DNA of 64,000 nt from an uncultured Acidimicrobiia bacterium (GCA_963765075.1 CAVXVA010000008.1:133078-197077), one strand, 5' to 3'; counted from the stretch's first letter, positions 11,173 through 47,497 are shown. Notes: a model not told the origin generated them from the letters alone. Numbers and translations: made by a program.

Positions 11173-11260
11173 TGGCGGAGGGGGTGGGATTTGAACCCAC
11201 GGTGAGTTTCCCCACAATGGTTTTCGAGACCATCCGATTCGGCCGCTCTCGCACCCCTCC
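11173..11260 (-). tRNA. tRNA-Ser (anticodon CGA), CCA encoded
   Basis: Reverse complement folds as acceptor GGAGGGG/CCCCTCC, anticodon arm ATGGT-CTCGAAA-ACCAT, a long variable arm, T arm GTGGG-TTCAAAT-CCCAC, and terminal GCCA. Confidence 0.9.
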
Positions 11261-32072: not shown

Positions 32073-32262
32073 CAGCCAACGGCGTTCGGGTCAGGGTTCG
32101 AAAGAGTGCCGATCTCCCACCGAGTGATCGGTAGGGCGAGCAAGGCCCTGTACAGGGACGACGCCCTGCGTTCGCCAACGAGCCGGTGTGTGGGAGCTCT
32201 TTCGAACCAGAGCCGGCGCTCGCGGAGCTGATAGCTGACGGCGCGTACGTGCGCGGTCCCTA

Positions 32263-32649
32263 CCGGGGATCTGCGGCAACTCGGTCACGTCGTTGTGCGC
32301 GGCGTGTGGTTGACGCGGTCGCGGTGAAGAGCCGCCAAGTTCCGGGAACGCCCTTGAGGGAGTGGTTGCTATGGGTGTTGAAGGTGATGCCGGAACTGGC
32401 AGCCACTTCACTCACGGTGCGCGATGTGCACACTTCTCCCGGGCCTGCGAGATCACAGATGCGTTTGGTGATGCTGACGGCGAGACCGACGACGTCGTCG
32501 GTTCGGACCTCGATCTCGCCCAGGTGGACACCGGCACGTACCTCCAAACCCATGTTCCTTGCTTGGGTCACGATCTCGATGGCGGCGCGCACCGCGCGGG
32601 TTGTGGCATCGAAGGTGGCGAGGAACCCGTCCGAGAAATGACGCAGACC
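32263..32649 (-). pseudogene. 5'-truncated class III adenylate/guanylate cyclase catalytic-domain fragment
   Basis: The frame opens right after a TGA at 32650-32652 and reads HFSDGFLATFDATTRAVRAAIEI...RAGVHLGEIEV...GLAVSITKRICDLAGPGEVCTS...LKGVPGTWRLF. The first ~60 residues of the domain and any start codon are missing. Confidence 0.6.
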
Positions 32650-32684
32650 TCAATATTGACGAAAACGTCATTTCACTGTAGGGT
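32650..32684 (+). promoter_or_regulatory. candidate TetR promoter/operator: overlapping palindromes and TTGACG-17-TAGGGT
   Basis: Perfect palindromes tcaatattga (32650-32659) and tgacgaaaacgtca (32657-32670). TTGACG at 32656-32661 and TAGGGT at 32679-32684. GTG start at 32692. Confidence 0.45.
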
Positions 32685-32691
32685 CACGTTC

Positions 32692-33429
32692 GTGACGCCG
32701 ACGATTGACGCATCACCGACTCGAGGGCACAAGAAGAAGGGCCGCACCCGTGCGGCGCTGATCGACGCCGCCATCGACGTCATCTCGGACCAGCCCGGTG
32801 GCTTCAGCGTCGGCGACGTGACCGCGTGGGCAGGCGTATCGCAGGGCACCTTCTACAACTACTTCGACGATCGCGACACGCTGATCGACGCGGTCGTCCC
32901 CGAAGTCCTCACCCGCTTCGCCGTCGAGAGCGCCGAACTCGTCGCGATCGACGAGCCCGTCGAACGGTTTGCCACCCTCACCACCATGGCACTGCGAATG
33001 GCGGCCGACGCTCCCCACGAGGTGCGGGTGCTCCTACGACTCGACGCGGTTCACCGAGCGATCGTCGAGGCGCCGGTGCTCGACCACATGCGCACCGACC
33101 TGCTGGCCGGGTACCGCTCCGGCGCATTCATCAGCGGCCCCGATGCGTCGAGCCTCGATGTCATCGTCGGCGCGATTCTCGTCGGCGCACGACGGATCAC
33201 CGATGAAGCTGTACCTGCGGAGTACGTCCCTCGCCTCGTCGCATCGCTGCTCCGATCTCTCGGCGTCGCCGCCGGCCCCGCAACCGAGGTCGCCGATCGC
33301 GTGGCGCGGTCCGTCGACGAGATCCGCCGCGTCTCCTCCGGCTCGACCAAACCAGCTCCGACTCGCAACGCAATGGAAGTTCTCGCGTCGTCGCCAACGC
33401 CGTCGCCGTCGTCCGACCGTCTCGACTGA
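32692..33429 (+). CDS. TetR/AcrR-family transcriptional regulator
   Basis: HTH RTRAALIDAAIDVISDQPGGFSVGDVTAWAGVSQGTFYNYFDDRD. Start GTG 32692 is preferred (possibly leaderless); ATG 32638 would include the operator. Confidence 0.8.
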   Translation: MTPTIDASPTRGHKKKGRTRAALIDAAIDVISDQPGGFSVGDVTAWAGVSQGTFYNYFDDRDTLIDAVVPEVLTRFAVESAELVAIDEPVERFATLTTMALRMAADAPHEVRVLLRLDAVHRAIVEAPVLDHMRTDLLAGYRSGAFISGPDASSLDVIVGAILVGARRITDEAVPAEYVPRLVASLLRSLGVAAGPATEVADRVARSVDEIRRVSSGSTKPAPTRNAMEVLASSPTPSPSSDRLD

Positions 33430-33437
33430 TCAGGAAA

Positions 33438-34016
33438 GTGACCCATCCCATGCCCACATCGTCTTCACCGCGACTCTCGCTGAGTCATACGACACTTGCC
33501 GTGCGCGACCTCGACGCGATGCTCGACTTCTATCGCGAGGTGCTCGGCTTCGTCGTCACCAACCGAGGCGAAGCCCCGGGCGGATCCGAGATGGCGTTCA
33601 TCTCCCAGGACCCCGCGGAGCATCATCAGATCGTGTTCATTTCCGGGCTTCCCGGCACTGATCGTCAGTTCGTGATGCTCGACCACCTGGCGTTTCGCAC
33701 CAACAGCCTCGACGACCTCCGTGCGATCGGCGTTCGTCTCGAGGAGGCCGGCGTCGACGGGGTCATCCCGATCTCCCACGGCAACGCGTGGTCGTTGTAC
33801 TTCACCGATCCCGAAGGCAACGGCCTGGAGTGCTTCGTCGACAGTCCTTTCCATGCCGCGCAGCCGTACGCCGATGGTTTCGACCTCGGCGCCGACGACG
33901 CGGCGATCGAGGCCGACACGCGCGCGAAGATCCAGGACGACGACGAGTTCCAGTCGATGGCGGACTGGCAGGCGCAGTTCCGGGTTCGCCTCGACGGCGA
34001 TGCGGCGGGAGACTGA
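33438..34016 (+). CDS. VOC-family (glyoxalase/extradiol dioxygenase-like) protein
   Basis: 192 aa. LSHTTLAVRDLDAMLDFYREVLGF...LDHLAFR...SLYFTDPEGNGLE pattern. Confidence 0.75.
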   Translation: MTHPMPTSSSPRLSLSHTTLAVRDLDAMLDFYREVLGFVVTNRGEAPGGSEMAFISQDPAEHHQIVFISGLPGTDRQFVMLDHLAFRTNSLDDLRAIGVRLEEAGVDGVIPISHGNAWSLYFTDPEGNGLECFVDSPFHAAQPYADGFDLGADDAAIEADTRAKIQDDDEFQSMADWQAQFRVRLDGDAAGD

Positions 34017-34019
34017 CCC

Positions 34020-34796
34020 GTGGACCTCGGAATCGCGGGTCGCACGGCCCTCATCTGCGCCTCGTCGCGCGGACTCGGGTTCGCCTGTGCCGACTCGCTC
34101 GGACGCGAGGGTGTCCACCTGGTCATCAACGGCCGGATAGGAACCCTCGCGGGTGCTGCGGACGAACTACGCGGCCGCCACCGCGTCAGGTGTCGACGGA
34201 TGCGGGCGACATCGCGGAGGCGGCAACCCGCGATCGGTTACTCCAGGTCTGCCCCGAGCCCGACATCTTGGTGAACAACAACAACGGCCCGGAACCGGGA
34301 CGATTTCAGGATTGGGATCGCGCGGACTGGATTGCTGCGCTCGACGCCAACATGCTTGCGCCGGTACTGCTGATCCGCGCCGTTATCGACGGCATGTCGG
34401 CGCGCCGCTTCGGTCGGATCGTCAACATCACCTCGGCCATGGTGAAGACACCGATGTCGGCCATGGGGCTCTCCACCGGTGCGCGAACTGCGCTCACTTC
34501 GGTGAGCAAGGCGCTGTCTCGAGACGTGGCCTCGGCCAACGTCACGATCAACAACCTGCTGCCGGAACGCTTCGACACCGCCCGCCAACAACAGATGGCG
34601 GAGCTGCATGCCGCGCTCGGCGACATCACCGTCGAGGCGGCCTACGCAGCAGATGAAGGCGACGATCGCCGCGAAACGGCTGGGCCGGCCCGACGAGTTC
34701 GGCGATGCGTGCGCGTTCCTGTGCAGTGCACAGGCGGGCTACATCTCCGGTCAGAACCTCCAGCTCGATGGCGGCAGCTACGCAGGCCTGTTGTGA
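34020..34796 (+). pseudogene. short-chain dehydrogenase/reductase needing two frame corrections (or base-call errors)
   Basis: Frame 0 gives MDLGIAGRTALICASSRGLG...HLVINGR. The frame of ORF 33788.. gives DIAEAATRDRLL...PDILVNNNNGP...NITSAMVKTP...TINNLLPERF. Frame 0 resumes (ORF 34608..34796) with MKATIAAKRLGRPDEFGDACAFLCS...GQNLQLDGG. Shifts at about 34165-34200 and about 34649. Confidence 0.8.
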
Positions 34797-36460
34797 CCGA
34801 CGAGTCCGCGAGCGGCTCCGCATCGGACCTCGACGTCGACGTCCTGATCGTCGGTGGGGGCCCGGTCGGAATGTTCGGCGGCATCCTTGCCTCGCGGCAT
34901 GGACTCACTTCGCTCGTGGTCGAACGTCGGGACGGACCGCAGACCGCCCCGGCCGCGCACGTCGTCAATGCCCGCACCTACGAGATCTGCCGGCAGGCGG
35001 GGCTCGACATGGATCGAATCCACGCCGCCGGCAAGGAACCGGCCGACTCCGGCCACGTCAATTTCGTGACCCGACTCAGCGGCGACGTGATCGGCCGCCT
35101 TCCGTTCGAACGTCAGGGCGATGGATGTCTCGACCTCACGCCGACCCCGCTCCGCAACCTCTCCCAGCACCGCTTCGGACGGATCCTGGCCGACGAGGTC
35201 CGAGGGTCGCCGGGTGCCGAGCTGCGCTACAGCCAGCAGTGGGAAGGCGCCGAGGAGATCGGCGATGCGGTGATGTCCGTCGTCACCGATCTCGAGACCG
35301 GCACGACGACCAGGGTACGAAGCCGCTACGTCATCGGGTGTGACGGCGCGGGCAGCCGGGTCCGCAAGATGCTCGGGATCGAGATGCTGGGCCCGCCGCT
35401 GATCCAGTGCTATCTGATGATCCACTTCGGCGCCGACCTCCGTGCGCTCACCTCTGACCGGCCGGCTGTGCTGCATTTCGTGCTCGACCCGGAGGTCGGT
35501 GGCGCCTTCATTGCCCACGACGTCGAATCGGATTGGGTGTTCATGCACCCCATTGACCCAACCCGGGAATCCGTCGAGGACTACGACGACGCTCGCTGCC
35601 TCGACATCATCGACCGGGCCGCCGGCACCCCGCTCGGCGCTGAGATCCTGGGCAAGGGCGCGTGGTGGATGAGTTCACAGACCGCCGAATCGATGGGCGG
35701 CGGACGCATCTTCCTCGTGGGCGATGCTGCGCACCGATTCCCCCCGACCGGTGGTCTCGGTCTGAACTGTGGGGTCCAGGACATCCACGGATTGATGTGG
35801 CGCCTCGCCGCAGTTTCGAGTGGCCACGCGTCGGCCGCTCTGCTCGACTCGTACGGAACCGAACGCATTCCGGTTGCCCAGAACAACGCCCATCAGTCGT
35901 TGACCAACGCGCTCAAGATGGTCCACCTGTCTGCCGCGCTGGGGACCGATGTCGAGCCGACGACCGAGCAGCTCCACGCGTCGTTGACGGATCCGTCGAA
36001 GGCCGATGAGATCGCTGCGGCAGTCGAGATGCAGCGGGAACACTTCGACCTGATCGGACTCCAGCTCGGCTACGTCTATGGCGACGGGGCGCTCGTCGCC
36101 GAGGAGTCGCCCCCTGAACCCGAGTCGCCGAGCACCTACGTCCCCACGGCGCGCCCCGGCGCGCGGTTGCCCCACGCCTGGTTGCGCGAGGTCGGCGGCA
36201 CGTCGACGCTCGATCTCGTCCCCGTCGACCGACCCGTGCTCTTCAGTTTCGGGGAGCACGACGTCTGGGCCGACGCGCTCGGCACCGACGATGTCGCGGC
36301 GGTGCGAGTCGGCGTCGACACGCCCTCGCTCGACTCGTGGCAGAAGGTGTGCGACGTCGGCGACGGTGGCGCGCTTCTGGTGCGCCCCGATCACCACGTG
36401 GCGTGGCGGGCTCGTGACGCCGCGCAACGTCGGCACACGGACCCGCGCTCGACGCGGTGA
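34793..36460 (+). CDS. FAD-dependent aromatic-ring monooxygenase (PheA/TfdB-like)
   Basis: GTG 34793 overlaps the SDR stop (GTGA). VLIVGGGPVGMFGG, CDGAGSRVR, GDAAHRFPPTGGLGLN. Part of listed ORF 33788..36460. Confidence 0.85.
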   Translation: MTDESASGSASDLDVDVLIVGGGPVGMFGGILASRHGLTSLVVERRDGPQTAPAAHVVNARTYEICRQAGLDMDRIHAAGKEPADSGHVNFVTRLSGDVIGRLPFERQGDGCLDLTPTPLRNLSQHRFGRILADEVRGSPGAELRYSQQWEGAEEIGDAVMSVVTDLETGTTTRVRSRYVIGCDGAGSRVRKMLGIEMLGPPLIQCYLMIHFGADLRALTSDRPAVLHFVLDPEVGGAFIAHDVESDWVFMHPIDPTRESVEDYDDARCLDIIDRAAGTPLGAEILGKGAWWMSSQTAESMGGGRIFLVGDAAHRFPPTGGLGLNCGVQDIHGLMWRLAAVSSGHASAALLDSYGTERIPVAQNNAHQSLTNALKMVHLSAALGTDVEPTTEQLHASLTDPSKADEIAAAVEMQREHFDLIGLQLGYVYGDGALVAEESPPEPESPSTYVPTARPGARLPHAWLREVGGTSTLDLVPVDRPVLFSFGEHDVWADALGTDDVAAVRVGVDTPSLDSWQKVCDVGDGGALLVRPDHHVAWRARDAAQRRHTDPRSTR

Positions 36461-36526
36461 CAGGCCGACGCTGATGGCCGTCAACGCGGCCACGAGTAGA
36501 ACGTCCTCGACGAATGAAGGATCCCT

Positions 36527-37381
36527 GTGAGCTACTCCCTTGCCAACGTCGGCGGCCGAGCCGCCCTGGTCGCCGGTGATCAGTGGTACGACCTCGAGTC
36601 GCTCTCCGGCGGCGAGCTCGGCCCCGACCCGATGGGCGCACTGTCGGCACCGGACCGCCTGGCCGCATTGACCGCTGATCTCGGAGCGCGCGAGTCGACC
36701 GGCGTCGTCGACTTCGACCGGCTCGGACCTCCGGTCCCGCAGCCCCGCAGCGTGTTCGCCATCGGTCTCAACTACCTGGACCACGCCGCAGAAGGAGCGA
36801 TGGAGGCTCCTGCCAATCCACTGGTGTTCGCGAAGTTCTCCTCGTGCTTGTCGGGTCCGGTCGCCGACGTCGAAATGCGCAGCGACTTCGTCGACTACGA
36901 GGGTGAGCTCGTCGTGGTGATCGGTCGGGGCGGCAAGGACATCAGCCGGCCGAGCCGGGATCACGTTGTCGGGTTCACGTTCGGCCAGGACATCTCCGAC
37001 GGGTCGTCGCAGTTTGCGTCCTCGCCGCCGCACTTCGATCTCGGCAAATCCTTCGACACCTTCGGGCCGATCGGCCCGGTGATGGTCTCGCCGGACTCCG
37101 TCGACCGGGACCACTTGCGGATCATCACCCAAGTCAACGGCGAGGTCCGCCAGGACGGGACGATCGGCGAGCTGATCTTCGATGTCCCGACGCTCGTGTC
37201 GTACCTGTCGAGAGTGACCACGCTGACAACCGGCGACCTGATCTTCACGGGCACCCCCGGCGGCATCGGCGCCACGCAAGGCAAGTTTCTGGCCGACGGT
37301 GACATCGTCACCACGCGCATCGACGGCGTCGGCGAGCTCGCCAACCGTTGTGTGCGGATCACCGACCACAACGTCTGCTGA
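36527..37381 (+). CDS. fumarylacetoacetate hydrolase (FAH) family protein
   Basis: 284 aa. FAIGLNYLDHA, VDYEGELVVVIG, GKSFDTFGPIGP, GDLIFTGTPGG. Confidence 0.85.
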   Translation: MSYSLANVGGRAALVAGDQWYDLESLSGGELGPDPMGALSAPDRLAALTADLGARESTGVVDFDRLGPPVPQPRSVFAIGLNYLDHAAEGAMEAPANPLVFAKFSSCLSGPVADVEMRSDFVDYEGELVVVIGRGGKDISRPSRDHVVGFTFGQDISDGSSQFASSPPHFDLGKSFDTFGPIGPVMVSPDSVDRDHLRIITQVNGEVRQDGTIGELIFDVPTLVSYLSRVTTLTTGDLIFTGTPGGIGATQGKFLADGDIVTTRIDGVGELANRCVRITDHNVC

Positions 37382-37487
37382 AGGGAACCCCGATGACGGA
37401 ATATCGGGATCGACAGCTGTGGGATCTTGCGGCCTGGCCGGAGATGCACTCGTAGGCGGCGCCAGGTATCTCGCATCGTTCGTACGC

Positions 37488-38701
37488 TCACACCTCTTGG
37501 TACACGATGTCGGTGATGTCCATGAGTGCCAGCCCACCGCCGCCGTCGACGCGCCGCGGACCGTCGGACAGCGCGTTCGTCAGCGTCGCCAGCGCGATGT
37601 CCGCCGACATGTTCTGGTCGATCCGCATCCAGGTGTACAGGCCCTCCACAAGCCCGTCGGTATGACCACCCAGGAGCAGGTGCGTATAGAGCCCGGGGGA
37701 ACTCCGCGACCAGCCGCTGCCCGACACGTTCCCATTGATGCCCGACAACCTTGCGTCGTCCAGCTGTGAGCCGGCGTTGTTCAAGATCCAGTACGCGTGC
37801 ATGTCGTCGAGCTTCTCGCTGGCGACCCTCCTGGGGTTGACGTTGACGAGATTCAGCCAGGTGTGCTCGATCTGGAGCTGCAGCACGTCGACCGCGATCA
37901 GCGCCCGCACGAGCGTCACCAGAGCCTCGAGCTGAGCCTTCGGCGGAAGGTAGACGCACAGCTCCTTACCCTTCTTGTCAAGGCTCGGGAGGTTGCGGAT
38001 GGCCGATACCTTCGTCGCGTTGACACCGTTGTGCACAGCGCCGTCCTGTCTCATCTGGTCGGCTTGCCCGGCGTTGCCCCACGGATCGTTCACGAACTCG
38101 ATGCCGATCGACGTCCCGATCAGGGTCGGCAGGTGATCGCGAGCTCACAAACGTCGAGGAACTGTCGGATCGTGCCGTCGCGATCGATGCAGAAGTGCGC
38201 CATGGGCCGGTACGAGTGCTGGACGCCACCACTGTCCCGCCAGGTTGCGACCCGGAAGTCGCTGACGTGCAGCAGATCGCGGCTCCCGGCCGTCTCGTGG
38301 AGAGCGATCTTGTTCAGCGAGGCCGCCGGGCGGTATCCGCCACCCGAGTAGACACGCATGCCGGGGTGGAGCGGATCCGCGAAGAACCGGTCTGCGTCGC
38401 GGGCGGCGTCGTCGAACGTGCCATCGGCCTTCTGGTACATGCCACGCCAGTTCGTCAAACCCGCAACCGCTCCCTTTTCGGCGCCGTCAACGACGAGGGT
38501 GTCGGTCGCCGCCGGAACGAAGTCACGAATGCGTTGCTGGTTGCTCGTCGAGCCGCCAACGGACACGCTCCCTGAGCTAGTGCTTGCGAACGCTGCGGCT
38601 TGATAGGCGTCCTTGTAGTAGACGAGGAGTGGAACTGTGGCGTCCGCGTAAGCGGTGATCGTCTCCACGACACGCTCGGTCTTTGCCATGAAGGTCTGCA
38701 A
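37488..38701 (-). pseudogene. island gene C: amidase_2 (PGRP-type N-acetylmuramoyl-L-alanine amidase) domain protein, one frame disruption
   Basis: ORFs 38120..38701 and 37488..38093 join across about 38100-38125 (...DGTIRQFLDV / ARDHLPTLIGTSIGIEFVNDPW...). Signatures KIALHETAG, HFCIDRDGTIRQ, SIGIEF, GGHTDG. No signal peptide. Likely start ATG 38689. Confidence 0.65.
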
Positions 38702-38719
38702 GTCTTCGTAGCTTACGCC

Positions 38720-41700
38720 TTACCGGGAATCGACCACGATGCGGTAGGTCGTGTTGACACTGCTGGCGTCGCCGGGCCAGCGGTCACGAGGCGACCGTGG
38801 AGAGCGCGTCGTCGATCGATCGAGATCGGTCACCCAGATCGGTCCGAAGCGCTCGAGAATGTCAACGTAGTGCGAGACTGGGAACTCGGCATTCGGCACG
38901 TCGTACTGCATGCCGGCGACACCGGCGACCTCGGTGACCTGGTCAAGGGCAGCCCGGCGTCGATGTACGGCAGCCACTCGGCACCGATCGAAGGGATGTA
39001 CTCGTGGACCGACTGGGCGGCCTGGTTCTTCCAGTTGGCCATCATCGTGGCGACGGTCGCCCAGCACGCCATCGGCGTGTCCTGGCGCAGTGGTCCAACG
39101 TGCCGGGAATGGAGACGTCGTGCTTTGTCGCCTCCGCCTCGATCACGACCTCGAGGCTCTTGAGGTTTCCCTCGGCGTCGCTCTCGGTCGCCTTGACCGA
39201 GCCCGCACCTTCCTGCGAGAGCTGGACCGCGGACCTGATCGAGGACGGAGTAGCCCTCCGCTCATCGCGATCGGCCTCCGCCCCCGCGGCGGCACCGCCG
39301 TCGATCTGTTGCTGCGCGTGGGCCTTGACCAGCGTGCCGTATTCCTCGTCGTTCAGCGCTCCCTTCGTCTTGGCCGAGTCGAGCGTCTCCATGATCTTGT
39401 CGGAGTGCTCAGTGTTGTGGGACTGCATCGCCATACCCTTCGCCATCTCGGCAAAGGCCTTCGTGTTCTCCTGGTTGGAGAGGTAGGTGCGCATCGCGTT
39501 CTGCTGGGTGGCCCCCAGGCCGGTGATGTCGTTGAAGATACCGGCCTTGCCGAGCAGCTCGGTGATGCCGCCGAGTCCCTCGCCCAGCGCTGGAAGTGCC
39601 GGCGCGTTCTGGATGTTCACGAGCGGCGGCGCGAACGCTCGAACGCGGCCTTCCAGTCGGTGACGGTCGGCGTGGGCGTGGCGACCGGCAGGAGCGCGGT
39701 TGGCTCGTCGGTACGGAAGCGTTCCCAGTCCTGTGACGAGTTCTCCTTCACGCGCTCGCAAGCGTCGCACACGCCCTGCACCGCTTCGAGGAACACCCCG
39801 TCTGACGGCACACTGATGCGGTACGGGGGCACCGGCTCCTCCGGCCGATAGTGGTCCATGATCGAGCACGCGCTCGGTCTCGCCTTCCTCGTCGACCTCC
39901 GAGAGGTAGGACTGGCTCACGCGGTAGCCCGCGGCGACTGGGAAGATGATTGAGTTCCCCGAGATCCCGAGCAGCTGGTTCTTCACAACCGACGCGAGGC
40001 TGCGGGCCGGTTGCGGGACGCCGAAGTCGTTGTAGACATCGATGTTGAACCCGTCGAGCAGCATGTACCGACGGTCTGGATCCAGCTGTGTCCAGAGGAC
40101 CTTGTTGTAGTGCTCGATGTTGCTGTTGAGGTGCTCGATCAGCTTGCGGGCGAGATACCGGTCCTCGTCATGCGGGTCGCGCTGCTCGGAGGAATTCATC
40201 GGAGCGTTCACGACGTATGGAGAAACCACGTTGTCGTACAGATCGGTGTTGACGGTCGTGTTGACGACATAGCCGTCGGAGTGGCTCGCCGTGTAGTGGA
40301 TGCTCAGGCCCTCGATGCTGAGCGTCGCCTGGTCCCAGAAGTCGGCCCAATAGCTGATCGTCTTGGAGTAACGGATTCGTACCTCGGTGATCTCCCGCCT
40401 GTCTTCGACGTGCGGGCTCCGAAGTTCATTCTGATCAGACGCCGGCCGCCGTGGTACTTCCCCGCTGGCGTCGTATCAAGAGTGGTAAAGGGCTCCAGCG
40501 TGATCGTGTTCTCCGTGAGGGCCTCGAAGATGCGCGGCGCGATCTCCTCGTTGAACGTCTGATCCCACTGTGAGATGGTCTTGTGGGCGAAGTAGTTCTG
40601 CAGGAAGGCCTCGAGGTCGTCGTAACCGAGCAGCCCGGCGACGGCTCGGCACAGGCGGTCATCGCGACTTCCGGGCTCGAAGAAGTCCTTGAAGTTGATG
40701 ACCTCGATGACGTCTTCGGGACGGCCCGTCTGGAAGTTGTCGTAGATACGGATGTGGGAGTCGATGAACTTCTCCCGCTCCTCCCAACCGTGCTTCGAGA
40801 TGTCCGGCCCGAGGAAGGCGTCGGCGATGAAGCCGAAGAGGCCACCACCGTGGTGGTTCACCAGCACCTCGCGCTTGACCACCGGGAAAGACTTGACCCG
40901 GTCGTAGACGGTCTTGGGGCGCGGGATGTCGACCCGCAGGTTGAAGTGTCCGGTCACCGACGTGATCGGGTCGTCGCAATAGGCGCCGGCAGGGAAGTCG
41001 ACGAACTGGTAACCGGACTGGATGCGGGCGTTCGCGTCGAACGCCGGGATCAACGGATGCTTGGCGCGATAGCGGAGGAACGGTACGGGCTGGAGATAGG
41101 TGTTGGCCGGGAGCGGAAGGAGGTGCTGTGCGAGCACGTCCGACCACTTGTAGATGTTGCTCGGCGAGAACTCCGTCATGAGGAGAGGGACGAAGATGCA
41201 CTCCTCGACCGACTCGAGCTCCTGGAACACCGCGAAGTGCCGCAGCACCTCGAAGTACATCATCGTGAGCGCATGGCAGTGGTTATGGTTGGCGATGACG
41301 TCAGTCGTCAGGTCGTACGTCTGGCCCTCCCGGACCGTCGTTACCACGGTCGCATTCAGCTGCCGATAGCTGCGCGCGTTCTGCAGGATGCCCTGTCTCA
41401 GCTGCTCGCCGAAGAACATCGCAGTGTTGCGCGAGCTGTTCTGCGACGTGTTGGCTTCGGAGTTGGAGTACCCGCCGGCGACGCCCAGCGATGCCCCGAT
41501 ACCCCCGTACGACACGCCGACTCCGAGCCCGGCACTGACGCCAGCAGTGTTCGAGTCGCTGTGACCACGCAGCGCCTCAGCGACGTTGCCGCTCACCTGA
41601 TCCAGCACGTTCCGTTCGTTGATCAGGCTGGCGCTCAGCGACTCCGCTTGGGAGATCGACTGCGACTCGGACGCCTGAAGCCGATGACGTGCGTCAATCT

Positions 41701-42943
41701 GGACGATCTCACGTTTCTGGCCAGGCGCCAGGGCGAGGGAGTAGAGCAGGTCACCGAGCGAGTAGCCGTCGGCCTTGAACACCGCCTTGTAATGCAAGAC
41801 GTGGCCGGTTGCGATCGTCACCGCCTGGTAGAGCGACAGATTCTCATGGGCACCGGGAGCGTCCTGCCAGCGAATCGGGTTGGCGAGGCTGACCCGGTCG
41901 CGGGTCTGGGTCACCGTCCCGCCCTGGAGGTCGAAGTTCCAACCGTCGGAGTTCCGCACCAGCGTGTAATTGGCAACGTCCGGATCGGAGGTCCGCACGA
42001 TGCCTCGATACGAGAACTCGGCCAATGTGCGATTCGGCACGGAGAGGTTCACGCACCCGGCACCGAGGTCCTGGGTGTAGTCACCCGAGCCGACGAGGTC
42101 TGCCTGGTCAGGGAGGCGCCCAGCCCCGTTCCCGCCGTGACAGTCGCAGTCCTCACCGTCCGCGTGTGGGCAGGTCGGGTCGGTGACGAGCAGGTAGAGG
42201 AAGTCATCCGAGATGGTGTCCGGCGAATTCTCAGCGTGGACCGCGATGTCGGCCGGATGGTCGGGCGCAAGTGACGTCAGCGCCTGCGCGTGGACATAGT
42301 CCCCTGACGGGTAGGGCATCCAGAAGTTGCCCGACGAGTCGGTGGACGCCGCCCCGACGACCCTCCACACGCCGTCGTCGGTCTCCTTGGCCTGAACGAT
42401 GACGGTGACGTCCTTGACCGGGCAGTCCTTCACGAGTTCGACGACGCGTCCGCGCAGCCGCTTGCCCACCGACGTCGGCCCCTCGCCGGGATCCAACCGC
42501 ACAGGCCTCACACGGTCGACGACGATCTCGAGCTCCGCGAGCTCCTCCGAACGCGCCGGATGCGTTGCTGTCCACTGCACGACTCCGTCGAAGGACTTGA
42601 CGGTGACCGCAACCAGCGCAGGCCGGCCTCCGACGACGATCTTGCGTGACTCGGCGAAATCGAAGGGAACCCGTCCGTGTTCGAGTCGGTTGACGCTGTT
42701 GGCCCAGTCGTAGCGGAAGGACGTCGCGAGCGAACCGTCGGAAGGTTGGTACTGCGCTTCGAGTTCGTAGAAGACCAGATCCTTCTTCGTGAGCGCCGGT
42801 CGACCGTCGGAACGCAATTCGAAGGTGCCGGCGATCGTCAGTGGTGCGAGCTCGCCGAGCTCGAGGGGGAAGTCGAAAAGCGCGGGCAGGTACCGGACGA
42901 CCCACTTGAGGAGCTCGGGCTCGGGCTCGAGCCCGATGCTCAC
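38720..42943 (-). pseudogene. island gene B: ~1,400-aa multidomain protein of unknown family with a C-terminal papain-like Cys-peptidase module; at least 5 frame disruptions
   Basis: ORFs 40304..42943, 39042..40229, 39617..39859, 38830..39072 and 38720..39067 tile one reading unit. This needs 1-nt shifts at about 40414-40417, 39853-39863, 39620-39645, 39093-39106 and 38947-38949. GTG start 42943 overlaps the gene A stop (GTGA). Confidence 0.6.
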
Positions 42944-43591
42944 GAGGGACCGTCGCAGGACCTCCCGATTCTCCGGCTGAAGTCGTCGAAGATGGTGTCG
43001 GGTCCGATTTCGGTGGCATCCAGATACCGAATGAAGAGCAGTGCCAGGAACTGCTCGTCACGCCCGGTCAGATCTGACCAGACACGGGCGTACTCTTCGA
43101 GGCGCTCGGCGTTGACGAGCACGATCCGACGTTCCAACTCAGGCCCGGGATCGGCATCCGTCGCGCACTCGAGCCCCGACGCCGCCCACAAGCGCGCCCC
43201 GTCCGAGAATGCCCCACTGACGATCAGGGGGATTGCGCGCACGATCGTCGTTCCGACCACGGCACTGTCGATGCTGAACTCGACGGGAATTCCGAAGGCC
43301 AACGACGCCAGTCGGCCCTCGGCGAACGCCGTAAGGAAGAATCGAACGAAGCGGCTCCGCGCTGCCGGTCGGCGCGCCGACGAGCCCTGACGCCGACGCG
43401 ACGATCGAGTACTGATCAGCGTCGAGCCGCTGATCCGCTCCTACCGGGTCGGTTTCGACTAGTACCCGCTCGATGCGGTCGTCGCCAGCGACGAAATCGA
43501 AGACCGGCAGCTGCGCTCCTATCTGAACGGAATCCACCGGCGCATCTACGTCCGCGCCGCGATAGGCGAAACTTCGCTGCAGCGTGACCAT
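42940..43591 (-). pseudogene. island gene A: ~217-aa orphan protein, one frame disruption
   Basis: ATG 43591 follows GGAGAGGGGG (MVTLQRSFAYRGADVDAPVDSVQIG...). At about 43335-43357 the sensible reading moves to the frame of ORF 42940..43302 (...RFVRFFLTAFAEGRLASLAFGIPVEFSID...). No family recognised. Confidence 0.5.
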
Positions 43592-43666
43592 TACAGCCCC
43601 CTCTCCGAGCCTCAGCCGCTGGTCCGGCCATGCTCCTGCCTCGGCGGACGGTAACCGCTCCGACTG

Positions 43667-44080
43667 GTGATTTCCAGGGCCACCTTCGAATGTCGAGACA
43701 GGGGGCGTCCGCCGACCGGGACCGCAGAAAGAACTGACACTGACAAGAAGCGCGCGTCCTATGAAGGCAAGCTCAAGCGTCTCGAAGCCGAACGCCAGAA
43801 GCTGCTCCAAGCCCACTACGCCGATGCCGTACCGCTCGATCTGATGAAGAGCGAACAGGCGCGCATCACCGAAGAGATCGCCAGCACCAACAACGCGCTG
43901 CAAGGTGCGGTGTTCGATGCTGAGCGCATCGAGCAGACTGCCGAGCGGGTAGTGCAGCTCCTGAAGAACTGCCAGACGACCTACGAGGAGATGGGGCCCC
44001 ACGAACGCCGGCTCATGAACCAGGCCTTCTTTCACAAGATCTGGGTCACCGAGGAAGGCGTCGTCGGCTGGGAGTACTAG
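43667..44080 (+). pseudogene. C-terminal fragment of a large serine recombinase gene
   Basis: Coiled-coil/C-terminal motifs KLKRLEAERQKLLQAHYADAVPLDLMKSEQARI and RRLMNQAFFHKIWVTEEGVVGWEY. The resolvase catalytic domain and zinc ribbon are absent. The frame is interrupted by TAG at 44078. Confidence 0.65.
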
Positions 44081-44254
44081 CAACCCTTCGCCAGCCTGCT
44101 CAGACGCCACAAGGCAAAGAGCCGATCTTCACGGCCGAGGTCCAAGAAATCTCGGCAGGCGAACGCTGGCGACCCCGACAGACACGCTATGAACGAAGAC
44201 GCCCCAGCCAGACGGCCGGGGCTTCCCATCGGCCTGGTTCGAAACAGATCTACT

Positions 44255-44342
44255 TGGCGGAGGGAGAGGGATTCGAACCCTCGGTGAGTTTCCCCACACA
44301 CGCTTTCCAAGCGTGCCGATTCGGCCGCTCTCGCACCCCTCC
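44255..44342 (-). tRNA. tRNA-Ser (anticodon GGA), CCA encoded
   Basis: Reverse complement has acceptor GGAGGGG, anticodon arm CACGC-TTGGAAA-GCGTG, a long variable arm, T arm GAGGG-TTCGAAT-CCCTC, and terminal GCCA. Confidence 0.9.
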
Positions 44343-44530
44343 GGGCGTCTCGCGAGCGAGACGTCGAGTGGGTGATGGTAGCGGGCGAGGTCCTGATACC
44401 CTCCCCTCGCGGACCGTGCTAGGTGGGGAACCTGTGGTGCCCTGTAACCCTCAATCCACATGTGGGGGGCTGAATTCCTGCCTGAGGCTCGAGCCGGAAT
44501 AGGGAAGGCGACTCGCACGCAGCGTCGAGG

Positions 44531-44625
44531 GCCGGGTCCTGCGCAACGAGATCTCGTGAACCGAGTCAGGTCCGGAAGGAAGCAGCTCTCAGCGGGCCCT
44601 CTCGTGTGCCGCAGGGTTGCCTGGT
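44531..44625 (+). ncRNA. ffs: signal recognition particle RNA (small bacterial 4.5S type)
   Basis: Conserved domain IV string gtgaaccgagtcaggtccggaaggaagcagc. It is closed by helices cctgcg/cgcagg and acgaga/tctcgt. The classic position upstream of dnaX-ybaB-recR fits. Ends are approximate. Confidence 0.75.
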
Positions 44626-44745
44626 CTGAGCCAGCGACGAGACCCGCGCCCTATTGCGTCGAGTCGATTGCAGGTGCACGGTCCGCATCCGCGAATTTGC
44701 GGGTGGTCCCTCACTCCGGGACGCCACGCGAATACTCTCCCGCCC

Positions 44746-45522
44746 GTGGGGGAGAGGGCGAAATCCACGTCGCGTACGCGCGCGCTGACTGCAGTGCCGC
44801 GCGTCCGGGCGCCGATTCGGTTGACCGTGTTCGCGGTGCTGGCGCTCGCGGGCGTCAGCGTCGTGTCGTTCCCGTCTCCCGGTGCTGCCGGACCGTCGGA
44901 TCCACCCGGGTTGCGCGTTGCGGTCCTGACGCCGGACTTCACCGATTCACTCAGCTTCGAGACTGCCCCCGGTCGGATTCAGGCGATCGCGGCGGCTTCC
45001 AACAGCCATACGAATTTGCGGTCGGTGTTCTGGTGGTCCGACGCGCCGGTCGAAACCGATGCCACGAGCTGCGCGACCTGGACCGACGAGGCCGGCACGC
45101 TGACCCAGCAGGGTGCTGCACTCCACCTGACCGACGGTCCGCGTGGCTCGGTTCAAGCAATCACCGTGACCAAGAACATCTACTTCGGTGGTCCATGGAT
45201 CTTCAACGTCCACGTCTGGGATTCCGACACCGGTCGGATGGAGCGGCTCGACTCCGTCCCGGTGCGCTCGCTGCTCGTGGACAACGACGAGGCTCAGGTG
45301 CGGCCGCTGCCCTGGCGGCTCTGCGCCCGCACCCGGGGCTCCGAGCTCTCGTTCAAGGTCTGGCCGACCGCCGCCGCGGAGCCACCGTGGGGCGACTCCC
45401 GATTCGGGGGCACGATCGCCCTGCCTGCCGATGCCCCCGCGTCCGGCGCCAGCGGCTGGTACGTCGGTCACATGAGCCCCGGCACCGTGTCGACATTCAG
45501 CGACCTCGAGACCACGGCTTGA
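44746..45522 (+). CDS. hypothetical secreted protein
   Basis: Part of ORF 44617..45522. GTG 44746 gives a basic N-region and hydrophobic core (RAPIRLTVFAVLALAGVSVVSFPSPGAAG). No family recognised; the start is uncertain. Confidence 0.5.
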   Translation: MGERAKSTSRTRALTAVPRVRAPIRLTVFAVLALAGVSVVSFPSPGAAGPSDPPGLRVAVLTPDFTDSLSFETAPGRIQAIAAASNSHTNLRSVFWWSDAPVETDATSCATWTDEAGTLTQQGAALHLTDGPRGSVQAITVTKNIYFGGPWIFNVHVWDSDTGRMERLDSVPVRSLLVDNDEAQVRPLPWRLCARTRGSELSFKVWPTAAAEPPWGDSRFGGTIALPADAPASGASGWYVGHMSPGTVSTFSDLETTA

Positions 45523-45560
45523 CCCGACGGGGAGCGTCGCCGGGTCGATAGGGTCGGGCG

Positions 45561-47497
45561 ATGTCGTTCCAGGCCCTGTACCGGAAGTACCGACCGCAAC
45601 GGTTCGGCGAGCTGGTCGGTCAGGACCACATCACCGCGGCGCTGCGCAACGCGGTTCGAGAGAACCGGATCGGCCACGCCTACCTCTTCTCCGGGCCGCG
45701 CGGAAATGGCAAGACCACGACGGCTCGCGTCCTGGCCAAGGCGCTCAACTGCCTCGATCTCGGTGACGACGGGGAGCCGTGCGGGCAGTGCGAGAACTGT
45801 GTGTCGATCGCGGCCGGGACCTTCAGCGATCTGATCGAGATGGACGCCGCGTCGAACCGGGGGATCGACGACGCCCGAGACCTCGTGAGCCGGATCAGTC
45901 TCGGCCTCGGCGCCACCTCCAAGCGGAAGGTGTACCTCCTCGACGAGGTGCACATGCTCACTCCGCAGGCGGCGAACACGCTCCTCAAGACCATCGAGGA
46001 ACCTCCGGCTCACGTGGTCTTCATCCTCGCGACCACCGAACCCGAGAAGGTGCTGCCCACGATTCGGTCGCGCACGCAGCACTTCGAGTTCAAGTACCTG
46101 ACCGTCGACGAGTTGACCGGCCTGCTCGCGTCGGTCCTGACCGACGAAGGTGTCGAGTTCGAAACCGATGCGTTGGCGATCGTGGCACGCGCAGCCGGCG
46201 GTTCGGCGCGCGACTCCGAGTCCCTGCTGGACCTGGTCCTGGCGCGCGGCGGTGCCGTCACGGTGGCGGCGGTCGAGGCCGCGCTCGGCGGCGCACCCTT
46301 CGAACTCCAGATGACGATCCTCGACGCCGTCGCGGCCGAGGACGTTGCCGGTGTCCTCACCGGCGTCGCCGCCTTACTCGATGCCGCGCACGACCCGCGC
46401 CGTATCGCCGAAGGATTGCTCGGGTCGCTGCGAGACGCGTTCATCTCCGTGGCGGGTGCGGGTCGGGTCGCGATCGACGAGCCCGACGAGGTCCGAGCCC
46501 GACTCCGGACCGTCGGGGAGACGATGGGGAACGCGGTACTGGTGCGCGCCCTCGAAACGTTGGGGCAAGCCATCGTCGACATGCGGGGCACCGATGCCGC
46601 CGATCCGCGCCTCGTCTTGGAGATTGCGCTGGTCCGGCTGGCCCGGCGTGATGCCGCGGGCTCGCTGCAAGCACTCGCCGATCGTGTCGACCGACTGGAG
46701 GCCCGCCTCGAACCGGGCGGTGCGCCGGTATCGGCCGGCGCGGTACCCGCGGCTCCGACCGCGGCTGCGCCCCACCTACGCCCGAACCAACGCCCGCACC
46801 CACGAGGTCGGCGGCGCCGGCGCGGCCGGCCCGGACGCGACGCGCCGCGGCCGAACCCGAGGAGCCCGCGGCGCCGACACCTTCGAGCGATGCCGACGCG
46901 GCTCCGGTTCCGCGGGGTCGACCGGCCGCGCTGGGCGCACTGCGCAAAGCCGCGGCGTCGACGTCCCCCGCCGGTGCCGACCCGGAACCGGCTCCGGCAG
47001 CTGCGGCGGATGCCGACGCGCCGGCGCCGCCGACCGACCCGGCGGTGGAGTTCGACTTCTCCGACGTGATCGTGGCCTGGGCGAGGGTGTTGGACGCCGT
47101 GCCGAAGTCGCTGCGGGCATCGGTGATGGAGGCCCAGCCGGTGCGGGTCGAAGGCAACGTCATCGTCTTCGGCGTGGCTCGGAATCACATCGACGCGGTG
47201 AAACCCAAGTTCCAGAAAGACGCGGATGCCATCCGTCAGGCGTTCATCCAGGAACTGGGTGGGCCGCCGCGGTTCAAGTTCACCCAGCAGGAGTGGGGCG
47301 ACGGCGAAGGTCCGCCGCACCGCCTGAACGTCGCCCCCGAACCCGAACCGCCACCGGAGTTCGATGACGCCATCGACCTGGTCGATCCGGAAGAACTCGT
47401 GGACGCACCAATGAGTGAGGGGCCGGCAGTAGATTCGGTGACACGTCTTGCCGATCAGTTCGGTGCGACGGTCGTGGAAGAGCAGCCGAAGCCGTAG
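45561..47497 (+). CDS. dnaX: DNA polymerase III subunit gamma/tau; the full-length product needs a -1 frame change at about 46770-46773
   Basis: The N-terminal AAA+ clamp-loader part is intact (GPRGNGKTTTARVLAKALNC, CGQCENC, LDEVHML, SRTQHF). Frame 0 then gives ~100 aa of Arg/Pro junk to 47069. The -1 frame gives a Pro/Ala/Glu linker that runs into ORF 47045..47497 (VEFDFSDVIVAW...). Confidence 0.85.

Follow-up and report, generated by a model that had tools for sequence, protein, structure and literature searches.

A giant gene with frame breaks beside tRNA-Ser(GGA) of an uncultured Acidimicrobiia bacterium belongs to an unnamed polymorphic family of possible wall-attacking proteins

The giant gene beside tRNA-Ser(GGA)

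The stretch of DNA under study (the window; 64,000 nucleotides of an uncultured Acidimicrobiia bacterium, GCA_963765075.1, CAVXVA010000008.1:133078-197077) carries, between a catabolic cluster and a tRNA-Ser(GGA) gene, a segment (37488-44342) that an earlier reading of the sequence alone (the first-pass annotation) had described as a tRNA-linked island with a truncated serine recombinase gene and an operon of three minus-strand genes, A, B and C, of about 217, 1,400 and 400 aa. Both borders stand as they had been drawn: ARAGORN places the tRNA at 44255-44342 on the minus strand, and the FAH gene (36527-37381, plus strand; full-length Pfam match) has its stop at 37381. Judged from its sequence, the supposed operon between them is one gene of about 2,037 codons (37488-43591, minus strand), the apparent gene boundaries being frame breaks. 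In our overall reading, to which we give a probability of roughly 0.6, this single giant gene belongs to an unnamed polymorphic family of presumed wall-attacking proteins and lies on a tRNA-linked island, and its breaks are probably artefactual.

Open reading frame (ORF) calls in the window show coding sequence on the minus strand from 43591 to 37488 throughout, which upholds the strand given to the three genes, but not their number. The longest raw ORFs of the segment measure 879, 395, 201, 193 and 120 aa, none of the sizes proposed for A, B and C. In a three-frame translation of the minus strand the protein-like sequence hops from frame to frame. The coding information switches frame at least eight times, additional small indels lie clustered, and a TAA occurs at 38720-38722. 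Altogether, some 13-16 small indels interrupt the raw copy, besides the stop. That a single gene is concerned is indicated by the following lines of evidence. First, single ORFs of other genomes, about 2,000 aa long, match all nine reading-frame pieces collinearly and in order. Second, start and stop coincide with those of the best end-to-end homologue, a 2,032-aa protein of Chitinophaga sp. CF118 (L013:297-6395): its residue 1 pairs with the ATG at 43591 and its final residue with 37491, and the stop is at 37488-37490. Third, the stitched frames (2,029 codons, with eight long-range frame changes and one in-frame stop) align from 1 to 2029 with residues 1-2032 of this protein. Fourth, when the window is repaired with the sister contig L084 (dynamic-programming allele choice, then explicit patching of ten short stretches from L084 into the window backbone), an ORF of 2,037 codons is open from 43591 to 37488 and aligns from 1 to 2037 with the same residues.

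The features which had been taken as gene boundaries find another explanation in this alignment. The supposed gene A is the N-terminal domain of the giant protein, matching the approximately 220 residues that precede, in homologues, the region of the 879-aa piece (window:40307-42943, minus strand), and the GTGA overlap at 42940-42943, presented as the coupling of A to B, arises from a 1-nt indel near 42977. Similarly, the "B stop" (38720-38722) and the "C start" both fall within the papain-like C70 domain, which the latter would cut. The N-terminus of the giant gene reads MVTLQRSFAYRGADVD and has no hydrophobic signal-like stretch, so that the absence of a signal peptide noted earlier is upheld, and its extreme end, MVTLQRSFAYRG, fits the motif which opens most family members. 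The stop lies 107 nt from the convergent FAH gene. Automatic annotation splits such genes, as illustrated by the public gene calls on L084, which give five fragments. The first-pass annotation was wrong on the anatomy of the locus but, as will be seen, right on its general flavour.

Frame breaks, sister contig and island

The sister contig L084 (ENA ERZ25039524 contig_34006, 12,095 bp) was reached through P0302, a 243-aa fragment, 97% identical, found in the exhaustive representative search. It aligns end to end with window positions 44259-32157 at 98.4% identity (107 mismatches and 76 indels), and none of the window's approximately 14 frame breaks is present in it; the TAA stops of the window read TAC in L084. 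Since no lesion is common to two sequences so close to each other, the gene was intact in the immediate ancestor or population. An initial view of the gene as a heavily decayed pseudogene, formed from the frame breaks and the clean neighbours, was revised on finding L084. L084 has its own breaks, evenly spread over every gene including those for FAH and the monooxygenase, which marks it as a noisy assembly.

The lesions of the window copy include 1-nt deletions at 43375, 43356, 42977, 40400, 39636, 39093, 38939, 38819, 38801 and 38137, and a further indel at 39865 in the second conserved body region. Nearly all are 1-nt deletions outside homopolymers, and the largest indel is 2 nt; homopolymer sequencing errors were rejected as their origin, the contexts not being long homopolymers. 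Between the window and L084 the giant gene differs by 42 indels and 77 mismatches, an unusually large proportion of indels, although L084's own errors feed into both counts. The ratio of nonsynonymous to synonymous polymorphism (pN/pS) is 1.67 in the giant gene and 1.46 in the flanking catabolic genes, and from this value near 1.5 in the flank too it appears that most differences between the two assemblies behave as noise.

It is worth noting that the neighbouring genes, which show full Pfam coverage, are not free of such differences. In the FAH gene (36943-37008), 1-nt indels form two clusters, each compensated in frame (one a +1/-1 pair separated by 9 nt, the other three -1 within 14 nt), which garble conserved FAH motifs, and we rejected the idea that they are errors of L084, as its alleles raise the Pfam score by 16 bits, from 183.7 to 199.7. 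Similar clusters occur at 34135-34235 and 32186-32302, and the clusters net to multiples of three. The SDR (short-chain dehydrogenase) gene has two uncompensated 1-nt frame changes, near 34187 and 34647, at both of which the L084 reading is intact, and the 890-aa ORF at 33788-36460 (plus strand) is spurious, being the SDR gene running out of frame into the FAD-monooxygenase gene. On the other side of the tRNA, dnaX (45561-47491, plus strand) switches frame somewhere from about 46733 to 46877: frame +3 matches residues 1-391 of its relatives, and frame +2 matches residues 397-611 or so. The annotated product has 502 aa, whereas the relatives have 590-650 aa. Either the consensus has an indel in the variable linker, or an essential gene is frameshifted.

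From these comparisons we propose that the lesions in the giant gene are probably consensus errors, on an island that is of low coverage or micro-diverse and that varies between strains. Several observations weigh against this proposal and for the alternative that the copy was inactivated recently and is a genuine pseudogene, a decaying cargo gene of an integrative island which is itself degenerating, its breaks and stop being real. First, uncompensated breaks cluster in the giant gene, with about 14 over 6.1 kb, whereas 14 of the 15 genes syntenic with the relative L081 (about 13.7 kb) give single full-length tblastn matches, dnaX being the sole frame change, and an 11-kb core stretch shows no isolated 1-nt indel relative to a 93% identical relative, the anomalies being limited to the island in this last comparison. 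Second, mismatches per kb are 2.3 times higher in the giant gene than in the flank, and its pN/pS exceeds 1. Third, the adjacent integrase gene is genuinely truncated, in both assemblies. Fourth, in four other loci (L033, L060, L067 and L072) gene calling splits the family member into two to five pieces, so that either the gene is often decaying or its length invites assembly errors.

Against a pseudogene stands, in the first place, the lack of any lesion in common with L084, although lesions that are real but very recent would also give this picture. The indels are only of 1-2 nt, like the evident errors of L084. Pseudogene decay usually yields a far lower ratio of indels to substitutions, and the share of indels here is far above it. 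Furthermore, the functional genes of the flank have a pN/pS near 1.5 and garbled motifs as well, dnaX is also hit, and the giant gene has diverged more than its neighbours have at synonymous sites, a result that relaxed selection by itself could not bring about. We thus regard recent inactivation as having a sizeable chance of being right, if short of even, and retain consensus error as the probable explanation. Where a metagenome genome assembled from long reads shows frame breaks on a strain-variable island, an independent sequence should be checked before they are taken for gene boundaries or for decay.

The island itself had been proposed from the proximity of the tRNA and of a recombinase gene, and comparison of the tRNA locus with relatives agrees with it, the segment having a foreign look. 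Nucleotide homology to the relatives L081 and L083 starts at 44255-44257, exactly the 3' end of the tRNA, which is also where L084 starts. To the left of the tRNA three relatives carry differing genes, with neither giant gene nor integrase, a comparison that is coarse, these relatives being only about 85% identical at the protein level. To its right, the order of SRP RNA, the gene of a 281-aa protein, dnaX, ybaB, recR and further genes is kept in all three; relatives of DnaX are 84-86% identical, and the named ones are labelled Acidimicrobiia, in keeping with an Acidimicrobiia-like host represented by a metagenome-assembled genome. The candidate strain-variable island (32157-44254, no strand assigned) would hold TetR, glyoxalase, SDR, FAD monooxygenase and FAH genes, the giant gene and an integrase remnant; the data suggest a length of about 12 kb, its left limit at 32157 being set only by the end of L084. 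Its GC content is slightly low, at 0.651, compared with 0.642 for the giant gene and 0.668 for the whole window, and the GC content at third codon positions is host-like.

The recombinase gene is indeed truncated. The plus-strand ORF 43667-44080 (feature 43655-44080) matches only the C-terminal part of phrog_95, a large serine integrase (positions 452-561 of 651, E 2e-5), which makes it a 3' remnant that lacks the catalytic N-terminal part; it is truncated identically in L084, and the island holds no functional integrase, only this remnant. A second copy of the tRNA 3' end was looked for as an att-like repeat and none was found, as expected, since serine integrases leave no long repeats.

Some minor features of the surroundings may be recorded here. 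Between the tRNA and dnaX, at 44414-44681 (plus strand), there is an SRP RNA of the large bacterial type (Rfam RF01854, 194 bits); the 363-aa ORF 44460-45551 is over-extended and overlaps it, the conserved gene extending from about 44746 to 45519. The tRNA-Ser genes with CGA (11173-11260) and GGA (44255-44342) anticodons are 33 kb apart in the window, and those of L081 (2016-2101 and 8627-8714) are 6.5 kb apart, with rpiB, MFS, YCII and sigma-70 genes between them that are unmatched in the window. From this differing spacing, the whole of 13.6-44.25 kb may be variable, not only the 12-kb island.

Body, exchangeable ends and spread of the family

The giant gene has many relatives. The 879-aa piece had 101 homologues of 900-1,500 aa, all without a name, in a word-indexed protein database, and a scan of species-representative genomes gave 262 relatives from many phyla, of which 78 loci were kept (median length of the family ORF, 1,869 aa). 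An exhaustive HMMER search found 2,295, 1,798 and 566 representative clusters (50% identity) at E-values of 1e-3, 1e-10 and 1e-30, respectively. The majority of the loci from the genome scan belong to Bacteroidota, the others to Pseudomonadota, Myxococcota, Actinomycetota, Acidobacteriota, Bacillota, cyanobacteria and Chloroflexota, and to a Methanoperedens archaeon. When ORFs were called and neighbours clustered over about 80 loci, no conserved neighbour emerged, no adjacent gene being common to more than eight of them; the co-occurring A-B-C triad, looked for as the first-pass annotation had advised, is one fused gene here and in the other loci. The family thus consists of solitary giants of 1,500-2,500 aa that have no signal peptide and are made of a constant body of about 1,500 aa and a swappable C-terminus, mostly a C70 domain followed by a second peptidoglycan enzyme. 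In Segetibacter sp. 3557_3, two copies stand head to tail (L015:3653-10171 and L015:10155-15215) with the same predicted N-terminal residues, a tandem duplication of a 6-kb gene.

The body follows a fixed order, namely an N-terminal domain starting with MxTLQxSFxY, beta-sandwiches, a long-hairpin core that contains a Gly/Ser hairpin and the motif NHNHCH, and lastly a helical linker. In the window, the N-terminal domain of about 220 aa (42929-43591, minus strand, as are all parts of the gene) matches the N-termini of P0019, L013, L005 and L004 and is broken near 43375, 43356 and 42977; its opening motif, M-x-T/S-L-Q-x-S/T-F-x-Y-x-G, is family-wide. When the first 225 aa of the L013 protein were used to look for homologues, there were no matches, so that this domain could not be traced to other architectures. 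Next comes a beta-sandwich of transthyretin-like or carboxypeptidase-regulatory-like type (42215-42457), with weak Pfam matches to phage_tail_N and CarboxypepD_reg and a Foldseek probability of 1.0 to transthyretin; a profile search of PDB sequences returned transthyretin-like proteins only. The most conserved part of the body (40844-42055), with near-invariant columns in alignments A1 and A3, is predicted by AlphaFold2 to form very long beta-hairpins. It contains a conserved Gly/Ser-rich hairpin (41429-41560), in which, according to the column statistics of A3, every second position is a conserved small residue, and the NHNHCH motif (41273-41290), which is near-invariant in the family and served as scan pattern. 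A second conserved region and the helical linker (39114-40403) were delineated from the tblastn frame path; indels at 40400, 39865 and 39636 place them in two other frames of the raw window. Save for the transthyretin-like domain, Pfam, NCBIfam, PHROGs and PADLOC give no match to the body, in agreement with the earlier remark that most of the protein belongs to no nameable family, and the PADLOC models of anti-phage defence match none of the pieces.

The two AlphaFold2 models of the core (pLDDT 70 and 69) show several hairpins with strands of 15-28 residues, and the Gly/Ser-rich hairpin is a candidate membrane-inserting hairpin in these models. The weak Foldseek list obtained with the core (E 0.16-2) is dominated by beta-barrel pore states, those of anthrax protective antigen, CDTb, lysenin and aerolysin. 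Two points speak against a pore: the confidence of the models is moderate or low, with a pLDDT below 50 in the hairpin, and the Foldseek searches of PDB and BFVD returned no significant match for the core (best E 0.16).

At the other end of the protein, the two modules announced by the first-pass annotation, one papain-like and the other an amidase, were both recovered by Pfam. The Peptidase_C70 domain (PF12385; 38678-39084) scores 61.5 bits in the patched protein (cut-off 19; positions 14-140 of 141) and gives a partial match of 21.5 bits in the raw piece. Small indels additional to the long-range frame changes lie inside it. Its catalytic Cys is encoded at 39064-39066, in CWATVATMM, and its His at about 38797-38799, in LHGRL, which is readable only after repair. 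The Amidase_2 domain (PF01510, N-acetylmuramoyl-L-alanine amidase; 37893-38314), which the indel at 38137 splits, gives no Pfam match on the raw pieces and 31.5 bits once patched (cut-off 26); the homologous region of L013 also matches Amidase_2.

A Pfam census of the C-terminal tails of 54 family members shows how far these ends vary: Peptidase_C70 occurs in 37 of the 54, Amidase_2 in six, DUF2272 in five, Beta-lactamase2 in four, GH25 in two, and Pesticin, Peptidase_C11, M15_4, C39_2 and Tectonin in one each. Another member carries M23, and distant plasmid-borne members have an OmpA-like end (Psychrobacter) or a Hedgehog-N/M15-like end (Bacillus tropicus, pXO-type plasmid). The latter, on plasmid JMTpXO (L087:5341-8658; 1,105 aa), ends in a Hedgehog N-terminal signalling domain (LAS/M15-like, 175 bits) and its gene adjoins that of a site-specific integrase. 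The best body matches of the window protein are L005 (55%) and L004 (52%), whose tails are unrelated to its own, whereas the best tail match is L013 (48% over 547 aa), whose body identity is only 43%. As the best matches of body and tail differ, the two parts are uncoupled.

Possible mode of action

A constant body that carries exchanged ends, with tail uncoupled from body, is the architecture of polymorphic toxins, which, as Zhang, Aravind and colleagues reportedly described in 2012, join a constant N-terminal delivery region to variable C-terminal toxin domains. The giant family resembles them in its long constant body, in the ten or more Pfam families found on 54 tails, in its patchy spread and in its island site; it differs from them in that it lacks a recognised trafficking domain or signal, has neither an immunity gene beside it nor a cassette array, and bears only peptidoglycan-directed ends. 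From this sequence architecture we tentatively propose, at odds a little below even, that the giant protein works as a self-contained polymorphic toxin attacking the cell wall, with a delivery body of unfamiliar type. The body would bind the target wall and carry the enzymatic end there, and the long hairpins, going by the models, might assemble into an oligomeric beta-barrel. The C70 domain would cut peptide stems or cross-links, or else free the terminal enzyme by self-cleavage, and the amidase would cut the MurNAc-L-Ala bond. Of the earlier suggestions, that of a toxin or envelope attack by a lytic-ended giant multidomain protein fits best, whereas the multi-gene module falls.

The toxin proposal has to be weighed against four observations. 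First, no immunity-like gene lies downstream in the window, nor is any downstream gene conserved over the approximately 80 loci. Second, there is no signal peptide, and Pfam, NCBIfam and PADLOC reveal no secretion or trafficking domain in the N-terminal 1,500 aa. Third, experimental data on any member were not found in the literature. Fourth, the literature yielded no name, structure or paper for the family, and nothing relevant on the combination of C70 with Amidase_2, on polymorphic toxins with C70, on encapsulins with AvrRpt2 or on encapsulin-linked peptidoglycan toxins.

Other known systems share single traits with the family. Pesticin, lysostaphin and zoocin A likewise have an uptake or binding part followed by a wall-cutting domain, and giant members with Pesticin, M23 and M15 ends exist, but the giants are five to ten times larger, their body sequence is unrelated and they have no immunity gene; no receptor-binding or Ton/Tol-box features were identified in the giant proteins. 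The very long hairpins and the alternating Gly/Ser hairpin of the models recall anthrax protective antigen, CDTb, aerolysin and lysenin, a resemblance and not a membership, the fold matches being non-significant (E at least 0.16) and the models of low confidence. The papain-like C70 domain recalls AvrRpt2 (itself Peptidase_C70) and the cysteine proteases of MARTX and large clostridial toxins; in most members it stands directly before the variable terminal enzyme (37 of 54 tails), and this position would suit a release by self-cleavage; unlike these self-processing proteases, however, C70-like domains also serve as endopeptidases of lysins, and PF12385 is among the catalytic domains of phage lytic proteins (PhaLP, PMC8310338).

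A bolder version of the toxin proposal, which we consider doubtful, would make the family secretion-system-independent, self-delivering giant bacteriolysins, with the hairpin body as channel or docking device, an exchangeable peptidoglycan hydrolase as warhead, its release mediated by C70, and a sub-branch located in or on encapsulins. Encapsulins have long been associated with a "linocin M18 bacteriocin" activity, for which self-delivering bacteriolysins on encapsulins, if real, would provide a molecular basis.

The most serious alternative to a toxin is a self-directed function, in which the protein would be a wall-anchored autolysin or a scaffold for wall remodelling during growth, cyst or spore formation, or vesicle release. 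The solitary gene and the missing immunity gene are consistent with it, as are the end domains, which all act on or bind peptidoglycan, including the non-catalytic OmpA-like domain of the plasmid member. Nevertheless, the uncoupled swapping of C-termini, the patchy distribution and the island location typify conflict genes, one member has a domain of pesticin-type toxins, and there is no signal peptide by which such a protein would reach the wall. We therefore hold a self-directed function to be unlikely.

The first-pass annotation had given equal weight to a phage tail-lysin or endolysin relic, to which a tape-measure protein may be added, left by a prophage integrated at the tRNA. The integrase remnant beside the tRNA would suit such an origin, and so would the catalytic domains (Amidase_2, GH25, M15, M23 and C70 occur both in virion-associated hydrolases or endolysins and in the giant family), the weak phage_tail_N/transthyretin-like domain and the BFVD fold matches to Ig-like domains of tail fibres. 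However, the latter are generic matches between beta-sandwich repeats, with template-modelling scores (TM-scores) of at most 0.16; the body has no PHROG; among 50,697 phage records there is only one match, a distant one, to a contig that is neither verified nor annotated; and phage structural genes stand beside none of the approximately 80 loci. A phage relic is accordingly highly improbable.

Hardly better placed is the possibility that the giant is packaged into or displayed on encapsulins, or that it is an intracellular abortive-infection effector which lyses its own cell. In four loci from different phyla the giant gene is indeed immediately preceded, in the same orientation, by a gene for an encapsulin shell (Linocin_M18; L003:4903-5862, L056:6323-7225, L071:1714-2655 and L074:5770-6756), and the giants of L003, L056 and L074, at least, have in common an additional N-terminal domain of some 120 aa (MxFExDxxxLWxG...WLRND...QYF...C.C.GRQVP); these giants may form a new class of encapsulin-associated proteins. 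By contrast, there is no encapsulin gene in the window or in some 74 other loci, and the window copy lacks the extra domain. As for abortive infection, PADLOC has no match, and the hydrolases would need a holin-like partner to reach the wall, none of which is conserved nearby. Finally, a multi-component conflict system encoded by three genes is scarcely credible: in one metagenome contig (L001) the body and a C70 protein do appear as separate adjacent calls, of 1,295 and 381 aa respectively, so that split versions can exist, but the collinear alignments to single ORFs refute the operon, A, B and C being fused in essentially all complete homologues, their proposed boundaries lying inside conserved domains and PADLOC giving no match.

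Retaining the polymorphic wall-attacking toxin as our working proposal, we note that many family members come from lytic or antagonistic genera of soil and sea, such as Chitinophaga, Corallococcus, Aquimarina, Massilia and Paenibacillus. Should they prove to be antibacterial weapons, delivery would follow a principle new to such weapons, and modular lysins could be drawn from them. The question is directly testable, several cultured strains holding intact copies, among them Chitinophaga sp. CF118 (with the C70 and Amidase_2 ends of the window protein), Paenibacillus sp. CF384 and Corallococcus sp. CA053C. The window copy is of modest interest, while the family is worth experimental work. One of the homologues in the word-indexed database (P0042; 1,257 aa, 41% identity), which ends in C70, is assigned to a fungus, Thelonectria olida (83-kb contig), and represents either a horizontal transfer into a eukaryote or a contamination.

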